Source of the DNA: a phage
Sequence record: PZ386977.1
DNA length: 64,000 bases
Strand: one strand, 5' to 3'
Positions 23,225-28,802 of this stretch are shown piece after piece. The position numbers were made by a program, and so were the translations under genes. Each line of letters starts with the position of its first letter. Position 1 is the first letter of the stretch. A model generated the notes under the pieces. It had not been told where the DNA came from. It saw only the letters and a list, made by a program, of their open reading frames with translations, and did no database searches.

Positions 23225-24352
23225 ATGGAAAAATTTATGGCTAAGTTTGGACAAGGATACGTCCAAACGCCATTTTTATCGGAAAGCAATTCAGTACGAT
23301 TTAAATTAAGCATAGCGGGCTCTTGTCCGCTATCAACATCTCCTGCTTATATTAAGTTCCAGGATAATCCACTTGGGTCCCAGGTTTTTTCCGTTGGATT
23401 AAACGTTCGTGTAATAAATCCTACAACAGGTGCAGTAGTTGAATCTAAGTCATATAATTTCTCTACTGAAAACGACGCCACGTCAAGTGCATTTGTTACT
23501 TTCATGGACACATATGCTTCAAATTTTATATTTGCTCTTGTTACTAATGCTAAAACAAACTTTCCTCCTGAAGTTCTTGCATGGTTTACTAAAGCTGGGA
23601 GTTCTGCTATTCCATTAGCTCAACAAGTTTTAAATATAGTGGACATTTCTTATTCTGCATTTTATATTTCTGGTAAGAATGCTATAGCACTAGAACATAT
23701 TAAGTATAGTAATAAGAAAACTTCAACCGACTATAGTACACCACTTGATGTTGTGTACGACACGATTGATGATATTGGTGCTACTGGCTTCCCTAGTCGT
23801 ACGTACGAATCGACAGACACATTTTTATCTGCTGTTGGAGGTACTAATAATGAAATTAAAAGGATGCCTACAACGTCCATTATTACACCTCTCGCCGGGT
23901 ATAAATTGAAGCCTGGAGATTTCCTTTATATGAAATTCCAACTAATGGCTGATGCCGATTTGTTAGCACAAGGGACGACACGACTTTCTATTCGTTTCTT
24001 TAAATCTCCTTCTACTTCACCTATTTCATTTAAGGATATAAACTTTGATGGGGCTGCAGGTGAATGGAAGATATATGAAGACTACATAGAAATTCCTGCT
24101 GGTGCTGATGGGTTCACGATTTATTGTTATCGTACAGCTCCAGACGGGCAAGGTGGATTAAGAAACGTTATATTCACTGAAGTATCATGTAATGGAAGCG
24201 TTTCAAAACCTGCGGAGTTTGGTATAAATGGTATTCGTGTAAATTATGTTTCAGAATCTTTAAGTGCCCCAGACATAATGACATTACCTACTCAATCTTC
24301 AACTGATACTGGTAAGGTATTTGGACAAGAATTTAAAGAAGCATCAGAATAA
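23225..24352 (+). CDS. 35: gp35 long tail fibre hinge
   Basis: 375 aa; position between 34 and 36; AAGAGG SD. Confidence 0.85.
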   Translation: MEKFMAKFGQGYVQTPFLSESNSVRFKLSIAGSCPLSTSPAYIKFQDNPLGSQVFSVGLNVRVINPTTGAVVESKSYNFSTENDATSSAFVTFMDTYASNFIFALVTNAKTNFPPEVLAWFTKAGSSAIPLAQQVLNIVDISYSAFYISGKNAIALEHIKYSNKKTSTDYSTPLDVVYDTIDDIGATGFPSRTYESTDTFLSAVGGTNNEIKRMPTTSIITPLAGYKLKPGDFLYMKFQLMADADLLAQGTTRLSIRFFKSPSTSPISFKDINFDGAAGEWKIYEDYIEIPAGADGFTIYCYRTAPDGQGGLRNVIFTEVSCNGSVSKPAEFGINGIRVNYVSESLSAPDIMTLPTQSSTDTGKVFGQEFKEASE

Positions 24353-24414: not shown

Positions 24415-25074
24415 ATGGCCGATTTAAAAGCTGGTAGTACAACTGGCGGCGCTGTTATATGGCATCAAGGTAATTTCCCTTTAATGCCAGCAGGTGATGA
24501 CGTCCTGTATAAAACGTTTAAACTCTATTCAGAATATAATAAACCACAAGCGGCTGATAACGATTTCGTTTCTAAAGCTAACGGTGGTACTTATTTAAAT
24601 AAGGTAATTTTTAATAAAGGAATGACTGTCCCTGGCGCAGGATCAGGTGACAATGGTATTTTTGCTGGTCCTGGTGATAATGCCACGTATGATACTACAA
24701 ATATGGATATTGTTTCGTGGTACGGTATTGGTTTTAAATCATCACAAGGTTCAGCAGCCCGAACTGTTGTAATTAATACACGTAATGGTGATATTAGCAC
24801 AAAAGGTGTTGTATCAGCATCAGGTCAAGTAAGAAGTGATGCGGCTGCTCCAGTTGCAGTGAATGACCTTACTCGTAAAGATTATGTTGATGGACGAATA
24901 AATATTGTTACGGATAACGCAAATTCCCGTGTATTGCGTAAAGGCGATACCATGACTGGTACTTTAACAGCACCAAACTTTTTCTCACAGAATCCGGCGT
25001 CTGAGGCTAATCATGTTCCTCGTTTCGACCAGATTGTAATTAAAGATTCTGTTCAAGATTTCGGCTATTATTAA
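24415..25074 (+). CDS. 36: gp36 long tail fibre distal connector
   Basis: 219 aa; AAGGAG SD; position. Confidence 0.85.
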
Positions 25075-25082
25075 GAGGACTT

Positions 25083-28000
25083 ATGGCTACATTAAAACAG
25101 ATACAATTTAAAAGAAGCAAAGTGGCAGGAGTTAATCCTACTGCAGCACAATTAGCCGAAGGCGAATTAGCGATAAACTTAAAAGACCGAACTCTTTTTA
25201 CTAAAGATGACCTCGGTAATATTATTAGCCTAGGCTTTGCTAAGGGCGGGGATATTAATGGTAATGTAACTCAAACCGGCGATTATTTACAAAACGGCAC
25301 ATATAATCTTAATGGAAACCAGTTTGTTTATGCAGGAAAGTATATTGAATTCTTGCCAAAAACTGCTGGAAATGGTGCTTGGGCTAACCAACATTTGAAT
25401 AAAGCCCCTATCTTTACAGATTTAAGTTCAACTACTTCTGTTTCAGAATACCATCCGCTGATTAAACAACGCTATAAAGATGGAACTTTTTCTGCTGGTA
25501 CATTAGTAAACGAAGGTAGTTTTAAATTCCATTATATTGATGAAACCGGGACTTCAAAATACTGGACTTTTAATCGAAACGGTAATTTTCAAGTTGATTC
25601 CGGAAGTTTATTAGTATCTAATGGATATTTAGTTACTCAAAGTAATATTGAAACTAAAGCTGGTTCTTTAATTGGTCCTAAAGTTATTACCAAAAATATC
25701 AATGTGAGCACTAAATCTTGGGACACTAATATTGATACTGCATATGATTTAGTTTCATTACCGACTTGGCACTATATTCCAACCGAAACAGATTTGGATA
25801 CTAATGGTATAAACTACCTTCGTAAATTCCGCGGACATGTTTCTTCTGCTATTTTCCATGAAGTTGCTGATGCTCGTTCAGGTAAACCACAGAATATTTC
25901 GTATTGGACGGGACGTAATGCTGAAGTTTATCAATGGTCTTATACCACAGATGGGCGTATGTCTGTTGCTAATTCGATAGGTATAGGTCTTGCTGATGTT
26001 GGTGACCAAGGACGTTATCCATTGGTTTCGTTTGGTAAAGGTATTGCAATTGGTGACAATGATACTGGTATTAAATGGGTTCGTGACGGCGTTATCGATT
26101 TAGTTGCGAATGGTATTTCTGCCGGCACTATTCGTAATAACGGTATTAACAGTACTAAAAAATTGATGGTTGGTTATAGTCGAGATTCCGGTTCTACTTG
26201 GGATTTCCCAAATAATAACCAAGCAATGTTTACTGCGCGTACCGATGTTGATGGCAATAATAACGGTGATGGTCAGACTCATATCGGTTATAGCAGTAAT
26301 TCTAAAATGTATCACTATTTCCGTGGTACAGGTCGTATGTCTGTTAGCATGGGCGATGGACTTCTTGTTGAGCCTGGCATTTTAGATATTAAAACCGGTT
26401 CAAATTCGTTAAATTTGCGTGCTGATGGTACCATCGCTTCGGTTCAAACGTTAAAACTTAATAATGGATTATATTTTAATGGTGATGGAACTAATGCTTC
26501 TCTAGTTTTTAAAGCAGCTTCAGGTATTGATGGTACTAAGCAAATAATGTGGGAAGGTGGTACTCGTGCTGGGCAGAATAAAAGCTACGTAACTGTTAAA
26601 GCATGGGGTAATTCATTTAACGCATCCGGCGATCGTAATCGTGAAACTGTATTTGAAGTTAGTGACGGGCAAGGATATTATTTTTATTCACAGCGTGTGG
26701 CTCCAAGTGGCTCTGAAACTACTGGGCCTGTTGTAACCCAGTTCAATGGACAAGTTAATGCTAGAGGAAGCTTAATAACCGACGGAAGTCTTAGAGTTAA
26801 CGGATTAAGCACTCTAGTTGGCAACGTTACAATGAATAATGGATTGTTTGTTCAAGGTGGTGCCTCAATTACCGGACAGGTTAAAATTGGTGGAACAGCT
26901 GATGCATTAAGAATTTGGAATGCTGAATACGGGGCTATTTTCCGCCGCTCGGAAGCATCATTATATATTATTCCGACTCCTAAAGATGCTGGTGAAAGCG
27001 GTGGAATAAGTAATCTTAGACCATTGATAATAGAACTGAACACTGGCACAGTTAAAATGTCGCATGATGTTCATTTAGGAGATTCTGGATCTGGTACAGG
27101 ATTATTACAAGTAAGTAATAGTCTTAAAACTATTAAAATGATATGCCCAGTAACTATTAACGAACGTAATGCAGCGCTTACTCTAGATTCTCCTTCATCT
27201 TCTTCTGCTAATTATTTACAGGGTTCTAAAGCTGGAACTAGATCGTGGTATGTTGGTCTCGGTGGCTCTGGAAACGATTTATCACTTTATAGTCAATCTT
27301 ATGGACATGGTATTGTTATAAGCGATAATTTCGTGTCAATTAGTAAACCTCTTAAAGTTGGAAATGCTCAATTAGGTACTGATGGTAACATCACTGGCGG
27401 CACTGGTAATTTTGCTAACTTGAATACCACAATAAATAACCTTAAGACAGATATTGTCTCGAGTTACCCAATTGGTGCTCCGATTCCTTGGCCTACTGAT
27501 ACACCTCCTGAAGGTTATGCCATAATGGAAGGCCAAACATTTGATACTGGCTTGTATCCTAAGTTAGCTGCGGTGTATCCTTCTGGCGCTCTGCCTGATA
27601 TGCGTGGTCAAACTATCAAGGGTAAACCATCTGGGCGCGCTGTATTAAGTACAGAAGCAGACGGTGTTAAGTCACATAGCCATAGTGCAAGTGCATCAAG
27701 CACAGATTTGGGTACTAAGACCACTTCTAGTTTTGATTACGGTAGCAAAACGACTTCAAGCTTTGATTATGGTACTAAGACCAGTAATACCACTGGCAAC
27801 CATAACCATACGGTAAGTGGTAATACTAGTTCCGCTGGTGCGCACCAACACGCGCGTTCAGGTCCTCAGGTACAAGGCGGCATACCCACTAGCGTATTCT
27901 ATGATGGATACAATAGTGCGGGTCCAAACGGCAACGCTAAATTCACTGCAACCGTGAGTGGTGCTACTGCATCGTCGAATATGGCCAAAACTTCTTCAGA

Positions 28001-28220
28001 CGGTGCCCACACCCATAGTTGGTCAGGAACCACTAGCGCTACTGGTAACCATGCTCATACTGTGGGTATTGGTGCTCATACCCATTCGGTAGGTATTGGT
28101 GCTCATTCTCATACTGTTGCAATTGGTTCCCATGGACATACAATAACTGTAAATGCCACAGGAAATACAGAAAACACAGTTAAAAACGTTGCTTTTAACT
28201 ATATCGTTCGTTTAGCATAA
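25083..28220 (+). CDS. 37: gp37 long tail fibre distal subunit (receptor-binding tip)
   Basis: 1045 aa; C-terminal His-x-His array and ...[11 protein letters not shown] end typical of T4-type gp37. Confidence 0.9.
27711..27786 (+). repeat. tandem 30-bp repeat (2.5 copies) encoding G(T/S)KTTSSFDY within gp37
   Basis: ggtactaagaccacttctagttttgattac / ggtagcaaaacgacttcaagctttgattat / ggtactaagacc. Confidence 0.8.
28062..28142 (+). repeat. tandem 27-bp repeat x3 encoding V(G/A)IG(A/S)HxH(S/T) His-x-His units in gp37 tip
   Basis: Three consecutive 27-nt units, protein [27 protein letters not shown]. Confidence 0.8.
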
Positions 28221-28226
28221 GGAGAA

Positions 28227-28245
28227 GGGACTTCGGTCCCTTTTT
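28227..28245 (+). other. hairpin GGGAC-UUCG-GUCCC + UUUUU between genes 37 and 38 (terminator/attenuator-like)
   Basis: 5-bp stem with UUCG loop ending 10 nt before gene 38 ATG. Confidence 0.55.
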
Positions 28246-28250
28246 ATAAT

Positions 28251-28802
28251 ATGAAACTCTATCACTATTATTTTGACACTAAAGAATTTTACAAAGAAGA
28301 AAATTATAAACCATTAAAAGGCGTAGGATTTCCGGCTCATTCGACACCAAAAAAACCTTTAGACCCTAAAGAAGGCTATGCTGTTATATTTGACGAACGC
28401 GAGCAAGAATGGGTATATGTTGAAGACCATCGAGGAAAAACAGTATGGACATATGATAAGCAAAAAATTGTTATTGACACTCCAGGTGCTCTTAAAAATG
28501 TTACTACAGAAGAACCTGGTGAATTTGACCTTTGGACCGACGACGGGTGGAAGGAAGATGAAGCATATAAACGCGTAGTTCAACGTGATAAGAAAATTCA
28601 TGAACTCTATAAATTATTCAGTGTTTTAAGTTCTCTTATTGACGCAGAGGTTGCTAATAGAGAAGAAAAACGAAAATTTAAAGAGCTCAAAAAATTCTTT
28701 GCCCTTTTAGAAAAACATGAACATCTTGGCGGCGAATTCCCTAAATTCCCTGACCTTGAAAACAAATCTATTATCAAAGCGATTATAAATATCTTTAAGT
28801 AA
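28251..28802 (+). CDS. 38: gp38 tail-fibre assembly chaperone (T4 type, not T2-type adhesin)
   Basis: 183 aa; MKLYHYYFDTKEFYKEENYKP... and FFALLEKHEHLGGEFP match T4 gp38. Confidence 0.85.
   Translation: MKLYHYYFDTKEFYKEENYKPLKGVGFPAHSTPKKPLDPKEGYAVIFDEREQEWVYVEDHRGKTVWTYDKQKIVIDTPGALKNVTTEEPGEFDLWTDDGWKEDEAYKRVVQRDKKIHELYKLFSVLSSLIDAEVANREEKRKFKELKKFFALLEKHEHLGGEFPKFPDLENKSIIKAIINIFK
28784..28791 (+). promoter_or_regulatory. late promoter TATAAATA for holin gene t (inside 3' end of gene 38)
   Basis: Exact TATAAATA 20 nt upstream of t ATG. Confidence 0.6.

Follow-up and report, generated by a model that had tools for sequence, protein, structure and literature searches.

Tandem repeats and His-x-His motifs in the tip of a T4-type gp37: predicted rungs of an iron-stapled needle

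Gene 37 and its surroundings

The window, by which we mean the whole 64,000-nucleotide stretch of phage DNA that was analysed (record PZ386977.1), carries gene 37 and, downstream of it, gene 38. The features considered here are the following.

25083..28220, plus strand: gene 37, long tail fibre distal subunit, 1045 aa plus stop (open reading frame and translation)
27474..27617, plus strand: tail collar domain, predicted needle base, aa 798-845 (Pfam PF07484, E 3.8e-11)
27675..27683, plus strand: His-x-His (HxH) motif 1, H865-S-H867, predicted to be the first iron site, at the foot of the up-strand (aligns with T4 H883/H885)
27684..27800, plus strand: His-free up-strand spacer, a degenerate 9-aa SASASSTDL and then three 10-aa units (repeat search and protein lag test)
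27801..27851, plus strand: up-strand 14-aa unit with HxH motifs 2 (aa 907) and 3 (aa 921) (motif positions)
27852..28007, plus strand: head, aa 924-975, 52 aa, predicted receptor-binding tip (hypervariable; position of the T4 tip subdomain)
28008..28058, plus strand: down-strand 14-aa unit with HxH motifs 4 (aa 976) and 5 (aa 990) (motif positions)
28062..28142, plus strand: three down-strand 9-aa units with one HxH motif apiece, 6, 7 and 8 (TRF period 27; PF03335)
28143..28217, plus strand: conserved C-terminal strand, 25 aa, returning into the collar region (nearly invariant in the alignment of relatives)
28227..28245, plus strand: GGGAC-UUCG-GUCCC hairpin and then a U run, in the gap between genes 37 and 38 (RNA fold -15.7 kcal/mol, z -4.4)
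28251..28802, plus strand: gene 38, 183 aa, tail fibre assembly chaperone of the T4 type (66% identity to T4 gp38)

The gp37 protein contains the Pfam domains Gp34_trimer, gp37_trimer and Collar, and its GenBank relatives are annotated as the long tail fiber distal subunit. The collar domain sits immediately N-terminal of the predicted HxH needle and aligns to PDB entry 2XGF (the T4 gp37 tip) from residue 2 onward. A phmmer search matched the window gp37 to 2XGF with an E value of 1.2e-89, and the match to T4 gp37(785-1026) fell in two stretches (query 29-213 and 235-306) across the collar and needle. The Phage_fiber repeat PF03335 also passed, scoring 22.7 bits over 6 stretches (cut-off 20; E 8.5e-5).

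A preliminary description of this DNA had taken gp38 for the T4-type chaperone, and this was borne out by its alignment to T4 gp38 over 179 aa (E 4e-91) and by a match to Pfam Caudo_TAP at threshold. That gp38 is instead an adhesin of the T2/T6 type was ruled out, given its length of 183 aa and its homology to the T4 chaperone. A terminator is annotated at the hairpin between the two genes in some GenBank relatives; a simple terminator scan did not report the hairpin, which was found by folding. No minus-strand open reading frame of at least 60 aa overlapped positions 27670-28145, and promoter-like matches were at the level expected by chance (4 observed versus 3.2 expected).

In-frame repeats and HxH motifs

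The preliminary description had also reported a 30-bp repeat, a 27-bp repeat and HxH motifs in the distal part of gp37, and each of these elements was found in frame where it had been placed. The 30-bp (10-aa) units lie at 27711-27740, which opens GGT ACT AAG, at 27741-27770 and at 27771-27800, where the third unit has diverged, giving 2.5 to 3 copies. A repeat search returned three copies with 70-73% DNA identity. The 27-bp (9-aa) units encode VGIGAHTHS (28062-28088), VGIGAHSHT (28089-28115) and VAIGSHGHT (28116-28142), and TRF reported this array with period 27, a score of 94 and 78% matches. There are eight HxH motifs in gp37, at aa 865, 907, 921, 976, 990, 999, 1008 and 1017 (nt 27675-28139); the array of such motifs noted earlier is therefore present, but it is larger than the four motif types then named. 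All 16 of the histidines in aa 861-1045 belong to HxH pairs.

We considered that the repeats and motifs could be due to chance or to the composition of a segment rich in Gly, Ser, Thr and His. The composition of the segment is indeed biased, and the 30-bp array was absent from the TRF output at a minimum score of 30. However, none of 100,000 shuffles reached eight HxH motifs, only 1 of 100,000 reached the observed lag-10 protein identities (16/36) and none of 100,000 reached those at lag 9 (15/27), and the same units are kept in register across hundreds of homologues. Given these shuffle tests and this conservation, we consider such an origin ruled out, with a vanishingly small probability left to it.

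A predicted iron-stapled needle and the pairing of its arms

From its homology to T4, we conclude that the region very probably corresponds to domains D10/D11 of a T4-type gp37, which form a trimeric needle stapled by iron. Each chain would climb the needle, form the receptor-contacting head and descend again, such that six antiparallel strands would surround metal ions arranged in a row, and six histidines would hold each of these ions (one HxH from each of three chains). The 10-aa unit would be a His-free up-strand segment of the needle stem, and the 9-aa unit (VGIGAHxHx) would be the down-strand segment beside it that supplies the HxH. One 10-aa unit together with one 9-aa unit would thus make one rung and one metal site, and a second type of rung would pair two 14-aa HxH units, one per arm. 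The two arms would have to keep their register, and their unit numbers would therefore be coupled. In the window gp37, three rungs of the 10-aa/9-aa type and one of the 14-aa type yield the eight HxH motifs, of which three are on the up-strand and five on the down-strand around the head.

The T4 gp37 tip has the same collar, up-strand and down-strand HxH arms, intervening head and C-terminal return strand, with gp38 downstream. All seven T4 motifs have counterparts in the window gp37, and the two HxH motifs of the window at aa 865 and 921 fall among these; H921/H923 align with T4 H929/H931, which coordinate iron at the foot of the tip (PMC6957217). This conservation of every T4 motif, together with the homology to 2XGF, suggests that the HxH motifs are metal sites. 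The window exceeds T4 by one 10-aa unit on the up-strand and one 9-aa HxH unit on the down-strand (8 versus 7 HxH): the HMMER alignment to 2XGF contains a clean 10-aa insertion in the up-strand, and a side-by-side layout places the matching extra 9-aa unit in the down-strand. The fibre tip is therefore predicted to hold 8 irons per trimer rather than the 7 of T4, if every site is occupied, on a stem that would be one rung, or roughly 3 nm, longer.

In T4, contacts G921-F970 and H929-G964 have been published, the D10/D11 boundaries lie at 881/882 and 1009/1010, and residues 1010-1026 belong to D10 (PMC6957217). These contacts and boundaries would imply an antiparallel register in which i+j is about 1892, which would put the T4 down-strand motifs at 980, 989 and 998 opposite the His-free segment 886-914, in which the 10-aa units lie. 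That 10-aa units pair in space with 9-aa units is suggested by the unit counts and by these few published contacts. A strictly constant register is not possible, as the two units of each rung differ in length (10:9). The 2XGF structure is said to be that of Bartual et al. (2010), and the architecture and iron sites have reportedly been known since then, so the view of phage adsorption is unchanged by our analysis. An AlphaFold2 monomer model of the last 256 aa, made with a 62-sequence alignment, had a mean pLDDT of 56 and a pTM of 0.26; a poor monomer model is expected for an obligate intertwined metallo-trimer, and it neither backs nor contradicts the fold.

The number of units on one arm followed that on the other across homologues. 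We found that the first HxH gap on the up-strand equals 12 + 10 x (the number of 9-aa gaps on the down-strand) and that 14-aa gaps are equally numerous on both arms. This rule was obeyed by 132 of 133 unique domains in a first set and by 237 of 239 distinct domains after 147 representatives of 50%-identity clusters were added, although the 239 domains, parsed out of roughly 2200 database homologues, are phylogenetically related and 237/239 thus overstates the number of independent tests. Twelve of 13 distinct architectures comply, with 1-6 rungs of the 10-aa/9-aa type and 0-2 of the 14-aa type, and the down-strand 14-aa unit is present wherever its up-strand partner is and absent wherever that is absent. 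In one exception (P0230), the arm lengths match and one HxH is missing. The other (L002; contig 000020 of metagenome 3300030021) has three up-strand units versus two down-strand 9-aa units in an intact open reading frame, which means that strict arm balance may not be essential unless this single metagenomic contig, in which the collar motif is PSPWP, is an assembly chimera. A limited literature search found no paper stating the pairing rule, which follows naturally from the published T4 structure.

The same architecture occurs in other phages. The Mosigvirus and Tequatrovirus isolates phiEC1, phiD1, moha, JS09, HX01, APCEc01, MM02 and WFbE185 share the 8-HxH layout and the head family of the window, and their gp37 genes have 92-98% DNA identity over the tip with point differences only; in phiEC1, the whole stretch that starts 8 residues ahead of the first HxH and ends at the C-terminus matches the window without a difference. 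The moha record marks the 27-bp array as a repeat_region. The needle architecture and a variation of 7-9 HxH are already published, given that Korf et al. 2019 (PMC6563267) reported several isolates of this group with 7-9 HxH and needles of the T4 type, reading the gp37 of MM02, WFbE185, G53 and KAW1E185 in this way. Side tail fibres of the Lambda Stf and P2 H type in enterobacterial prophages (the "T4- and lambda-based RBP family", PMC9659904) likewise have the collar, HxH ladder, variable head and pairing rule, with C-termini about 57-68% identical to the last 256 aa of the window gp37. Most of them lack a 14-aa rung (architecture 42 | 9,9,9, with 6 HxH), and their heads are short (30-38 aa) and sit on unrelated shafts.

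The gp37 of JLBYU31 (8 HxH) and that of PhiZZ23 (7 HxH) carry the same head and differ by one 10-aa and one 9-aa unit, and two further head clusters likewise occur on mixed stem lengths. A possible, though rather unlikely, extension of the needle model is that the stem works as a ladder of modules that grows or shrinks over evolution by joint gain or loss of 10-aa and 9-aa units (4-10 metal sites), that stem length is adaptive, that unequal exchange in the arrays makes new lengths and that unbalanced forms resembling L002 are viable stepping stones between them. An adaptive stem length could, for example, set the reach of the head through LPS, O-antigen or capsule. The pairing rule provides a practical design constraint for engineering receptor-binding proteins of the T4/lambda type, in which heads are transferable between stems, and the stem can probably be lengthened or shortened only if an up-strand unit and a down-strand unit are gained or lost together. 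It could also serve as a quick check, from sequence only, for mis-assembled or defective fibre genes.

The head, exchange between fibres and the age of the repeats

T2, T6 and S16 share with the window the g37-g38-t locus and its role in host recognition. In those phages the adhesin is gp38 (about 260 aa), and gp37 has no HxH needle (PMC3157838), whereas the window encodes a gp38 of the T4 chaperone type and its gp37 carries the predicted needle. Given a T4-type gp37 with a T4-type chaperone, specificity is expected in gp37, as the preliminary description had argued; its placement of the repeats within the receptor-binding tip did not hold, given that by homology they belong to the stem. The receptor-binding tip is probably the hypervariable 52-aa head between HxH motifs 3 and 4, which corresponds in position to the tip subdomain of T4, the site of the receptor-binding residues identified by mutagenesis (PMC6957217). 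The predicted host-range determinant is thus aa 924-975 (nt 27852-28007) instead of the repeats. At 70% identity, 46 head clusters were distinguished among 140 unique domains, and DNA identity among relatives is about 60-74% in the head versus 82-92% in the flanking arms. The head is longer than that of T4 (52 versus 34 aa) and has no sequence relationship to it, which makes a receptor other than the OmpC/LPS site of T4 probable.

The contrast between head and arms could also have a source in recombination, in a manner that would complement the iron-stapled needle. The conserved repeat and His-box DNA would act mainly as homology linkers for head swaps, which the periodic scaffold would make tolerable, a reading that we find plausible but hold tentatively. 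According to Tetart et al. (1998), exchanges reportedly run through conserved His-box motifs in gp37. Fibre-motif swapping and modular shuffling in the tail-fibre locus were described by Trojet et al. 2011, citing Tetart et al. 1998 (PMC3157838). The arms are much more conserved than the head at the DNA level, for example in L002, whose identity to the window is 0.82 in the up-strand, 0.63 in the head and 0.92 in the down-strand, and its junction falls inside the 27-bp array. In the first set, just 7 stem architectures carry the 46 head clusters, three of which are found on stems of two lengths, and the tip module is common to Tequatrovirus (phiD1, 98%) and Mosigvirus (phiEC1, moha, ST0), the backbone of the window being Mosigvirus-like. 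However, structural constraint on metal ligands and glycines fully accounts for the conservation of the arms, and mosaicism proves that exchange occurs, not that the repeats are kept up for it.

A faster role for the arrays had been suggested in the preliminary description, in which tandem repeats were hot spots for copy-number change. Slippage or unequal recombination would then quickly shift tip length, metal sites and host range, and T4 host-range mutants with duplications of a small gp37 segment have reportedly been found (Tetart et al. 1996). The copy number does differ across the wider family, from 1 to 6 units, and the number of HxH motifs changes with it, in agreement with the earlier proposal that copy-number change could alter metal-binding sites. 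L002 is short by exactly one 27-bp unit, and its identity to the window shifts inside the array from about 85% to 98.4%, which is the pattern expected of an out-of-register exchange. Identical or near-identical units in some relatives (30-bp units at 100% in VR25 (L001) and 90% in JLBYU31; 27-bp units at 93% in F2) suggest occasional conversion, and a 15-nt exact repeat is shared by 27-bp units 1 and 2 of the window.

Against this, the DNA identity between neighbouring units of the window is just 77% in the 30-bp array and 81% in the 27-bp array, with longest in-register exact runs of 8 and 15 nt, respectively. Five of the six differing codons in the 30-bp pair are synonymous, which indicates that the duplication is old. 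At least 80% of the query was covered by 144 records, and among about 60 relatives sampled at 78-98% identity no length change of 27, 30 or 57 nt was found; copy number is thus invariant among these close relatives and varies only between distant lineages and in the contig L002, and the arrays do not behave as fast hot spots. Changing one array alone would upset the arm balance kept by 237 of 239 homologues, and the arrays sit in the stem, away from the receptor-contacting head. We therefore regard rapid change through the arrays as improbable; rare unequal exchange in them seems to have occurred, in the one metagenomic contig. The sole small tandem duplication in the close relatives, QGGVP in phage F31, lies in the head, outside the repeats.

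Tail fibre locus and gp37 repeats

A T4-type distal tail-fibre block, from gp36 to the ORF after gp38, is encoded in the window as listed here. Both repeats and the His-x-His (HxH) motifs that the preliminary description had reported in gp37 are present and in frame.

24415-25074: gp36
25083-28220: gp37, 1045 aa
27711-27740: 30-bp unit 1 in gp37 (10 protein letters not shown)
27741-27770: 30-bp unit 2 (10 protein letters not shown)
27771-27800: 30-bp unit 3, diverged (10 protein letters not shown)
28062-28088: 27-bp unit 1, VGIGAHTHS
28089-28115: 27-bp unit 2, VGIGAHSHT
28116-28142: 27-bp unit 3, VAIGSHGHT
28251-28802: gp38, 183 aa
28812-29471: ORF at the position annotated holin in relatives

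The 27-bp array was detected by TRF with a period of 27 and a score of 94. Eight HxH motifs occur in gp37, at aa 865, 907, 921, 976, 990, 999, 1008, and 1017, and every histidine of aa 861-1045 (16/16) belongs to an HxH pair. Shuffling the residues reached eight HxH motifs in 0 of 100000 trials, lag-10 periodicity in 1/100000, and lag-9 periodicity in 0/100000. The last 306 aa of gp37 match the T4 gp37 receptor-binding tip structure (PDB 2XGF) with an E value of 1.2e-89, and the gp38 of the window shares 66% identity with the T4 gp38 chaperone. Pfam also identified the tail collar domain (PF07484) in gp37, together with six copies, at threshold, of the Phage_fiber repeat (PF03335). The interval from the g37 stop to the g38 start contains a GGGAC-UUCG-GUCCC hairpin and then a U run (28227-28245; -15.7 kcal/mol, z -4.4); a terminator is annotated at this site in some GenBank relatives, and a simple terminator scan did not report the hairpin. 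The ORF at 23225-24352, in the gp35 position between a 1291-aa ORF and gp36, matches the Pfam family ILEI (PF15711, interleukin-like EMT inducer) above the cut-off (E 6e-7).

For the T4 fibre tip, the fold, the binding of iron by HxH motifs, and the position of the receptor site are all established. Korf et al. 2019 reported 7-9 HxH motifs in gp37 of phages among the closest matches here and classed these as having a needle of the T4 type (PMC6563267). The feature is thus already known, as GenBank also contains proteins near-identical to the window gp37 and the moha record marks the 27-bp array as a repeat region.

Matching unit numbers in the predicted needle stem

In T4 gp37, domain D10 comprises residues 811-881 and 1010-1026, and D11 is the needle (882-1009), with seven irons along its length; alanine scanning of the tip placed plaque-critical residues within ~929-949, including the iron ligands H929 and H931, and substitutions beyond this stretch, up to ~958, were tolerated (Islam et al. 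2019, PMC6957217). When the gp37 C-termini are set side by side, H921/H923 of the window align with T4 H929/H931, and the predicted receptor-binding tip, or head, therefore lies between HxH #3 and #4. It is predicted to span 52 aa (aa 924-975, nt 27852-28007). By homology to T4, the chain would run up the needle, through the head, and back down, with the repeats probably flanking the head in the stem.

Compared to T4 gp37, the window has exactly one additional 10-aa unit on the up-strand arm of the stem and exactly one additional 9-aa HxH unit on the down-strand arm (8 HxH versus 7). Similarly, JLBYU31 and PhiZZ23 share a head and differ by exactly one 10-aa and one 9-aa unit, and Salmonella phage Lv5cm is missing a 14-aa HxH unit on each arm. 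We collected C-terminal domains from 120 database proteins, 80 IMG/VR loci, 13 GenBank phages, and a further 147 cluster representatives (50% identity) and applied two rules, namely that n 9-aa gaps on the down-strand go with a first up-strand HxH gap of 12 + 10n, and that the count of 14-aa gaps is equal on both arms. Both rules were obeyed by 132/133 unique domains in the first set and 237/239 overall, spanning n = 1 to 6, 14-aa rungs from 0 to 2, and 4 to 10 HxH motifs. The database homologue P0230 is an exception in that its lengths match but one HxH is missing, and the contig L002 carries the only truly unbalanced domain of the 239.

The published T4 contacts G921-F970 and H929-G964, taken with the D10/D11 boundaries (PMC6957217), imply an antiparallel register. 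From these contacts, rather than from coordinates, we infer that the T4 down-strand HxH motifs at 980/989/998 lie opposite the His-free up-strand segment with the 10-aa units. Given this register and the unit pairing, the stem can be read as a ladder built from rungs of two kinds: type A would comprise 10 aa up and 9 aa down with one metal, and type B 14 aa up and 14 aa down with two metals. The window stem would then be 3A + 1B plus a basal site, with 8 predicted irons, and about one rung longer than that of T4 (~3 nm, from an assumed rise of roughly 3.2 Å per residue). Extreme ladders among database homologues also obey the rule, including P0237 (one A-rung and two B-rungs), P0038 (3A+2B, 10 HxH), P0133 (5A+1B), and P0228 (six A-rungs). 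The 14-aa units of both arms of P0237 have nearly the same sequence (SGTAASAGAHxH).

An explicit up-strand/down-strand pairing rule was not found stated in the literature that could be reached. The rule is a natural corollary of the T4 structure and no surprise; its use lies in constraining engineering and in sanity-checking assemblies.

Stability of the repeat arrays

The 30-bp units 1 and 2 of the window are 77% identical, with 5/6 differing codons synonymous, and the 27-bp units 1 and 2 share 81% identity and match exactly in register over at most 15 consecutive nt. Averaged over eleven phages, units of the same phage were no more alike than corresponding units across phages, so there is no general homogenization and the duplications are old. 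The comparison of repeat copy number proposed in the preliminary description showed no array-unit change among close relatives: 144 GenBank records reached a query coverage of 80% or more, and no length change of 27, 30, or 57 nt was found among the ~60 sampled (78-98% identity). The only length change among the close relatives sampled is a 15-nt tandem duplication in the head of vB_Eco_F31, whose tip is 92.5% identical (QGGVPQGGVP versus QGGIP in the window); it matches window ~27870-27884, in the predicted receptor-binding part. The window repeats are thus mostly not hot spots. The earlier interpretation stands in part: the T4-type gene, the chaperone logic, and, by homology to the T4 needle, the idea of HxH motifs as metal sites were right, but the arrays had been expected to be hot spots and placed in the "tip," neither of which agrees with the unit identities, the constant copy number in the sampled relatives, and their likely stem position.

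The arrays nevertheless show signs of what may be rare events. The two full 30-bp units of L001, an IMG/VR contig putatively of phage VR25, are 100% identical in DNA versus 77% in the window, which suggests a recent conversion inside the array without copy-number change; the 30-bp units of JLBYU31 are 90% identical and the 27-bp units of F2 are 93% identical. In L002 (IMG/VR 3300030021_000020, nt ~2059-2244 and downstream), three 10-aa but two 9-aa units are present in an intact ORF. One 27-bp unit is absent, and exactly there identity to the window shifts from ~85% (~80-85% further upstream) to 98.4%, a level that holds over the last 27-bp unit, gp38, and the next ORF; the junction therefore lies inside the repeat array. 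This arrangement could have arisen either by out-of-register exchange (unequal crossover) or by chimeric metagenome assembly.

Exchange of gp37 modules

The window backbone is Mosigvirus-like (97.6% identity to Shigella phage SHSML-52-1 across 20 kb), and gp37 is a mosaic relative to the rest of the window. The gp37 shaft has a best identity of 94%, to AV118. Tip identity reaches 98% with Tequatrovirus phiD1 and 98.4% with Mosigvirus phiEC1, and the tip is therefore a mobile module common to both genera.

Judged by sequence comparison, the head is the variable, exchangeable part of the domain. DNA identity falls in the head while both arms remain conserved, and the 140 unique domains of the first set yielded 46 head clusters (70% identity) versus 7 stem architectures. 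The contrast between head and arms fits the modular shuffling of tail fibre segments, as described in a passage of Trojet et al. 2011 that attributes it to Tetart et al. 1998 (PMC3157838), and the pattern of the "T4- and lambda-based RBP family," in which the last ~215 aa are conserved and the receptor-specificity region diverges (PMC9659904). Three head clusters of the first set were each found on two stem lengths.
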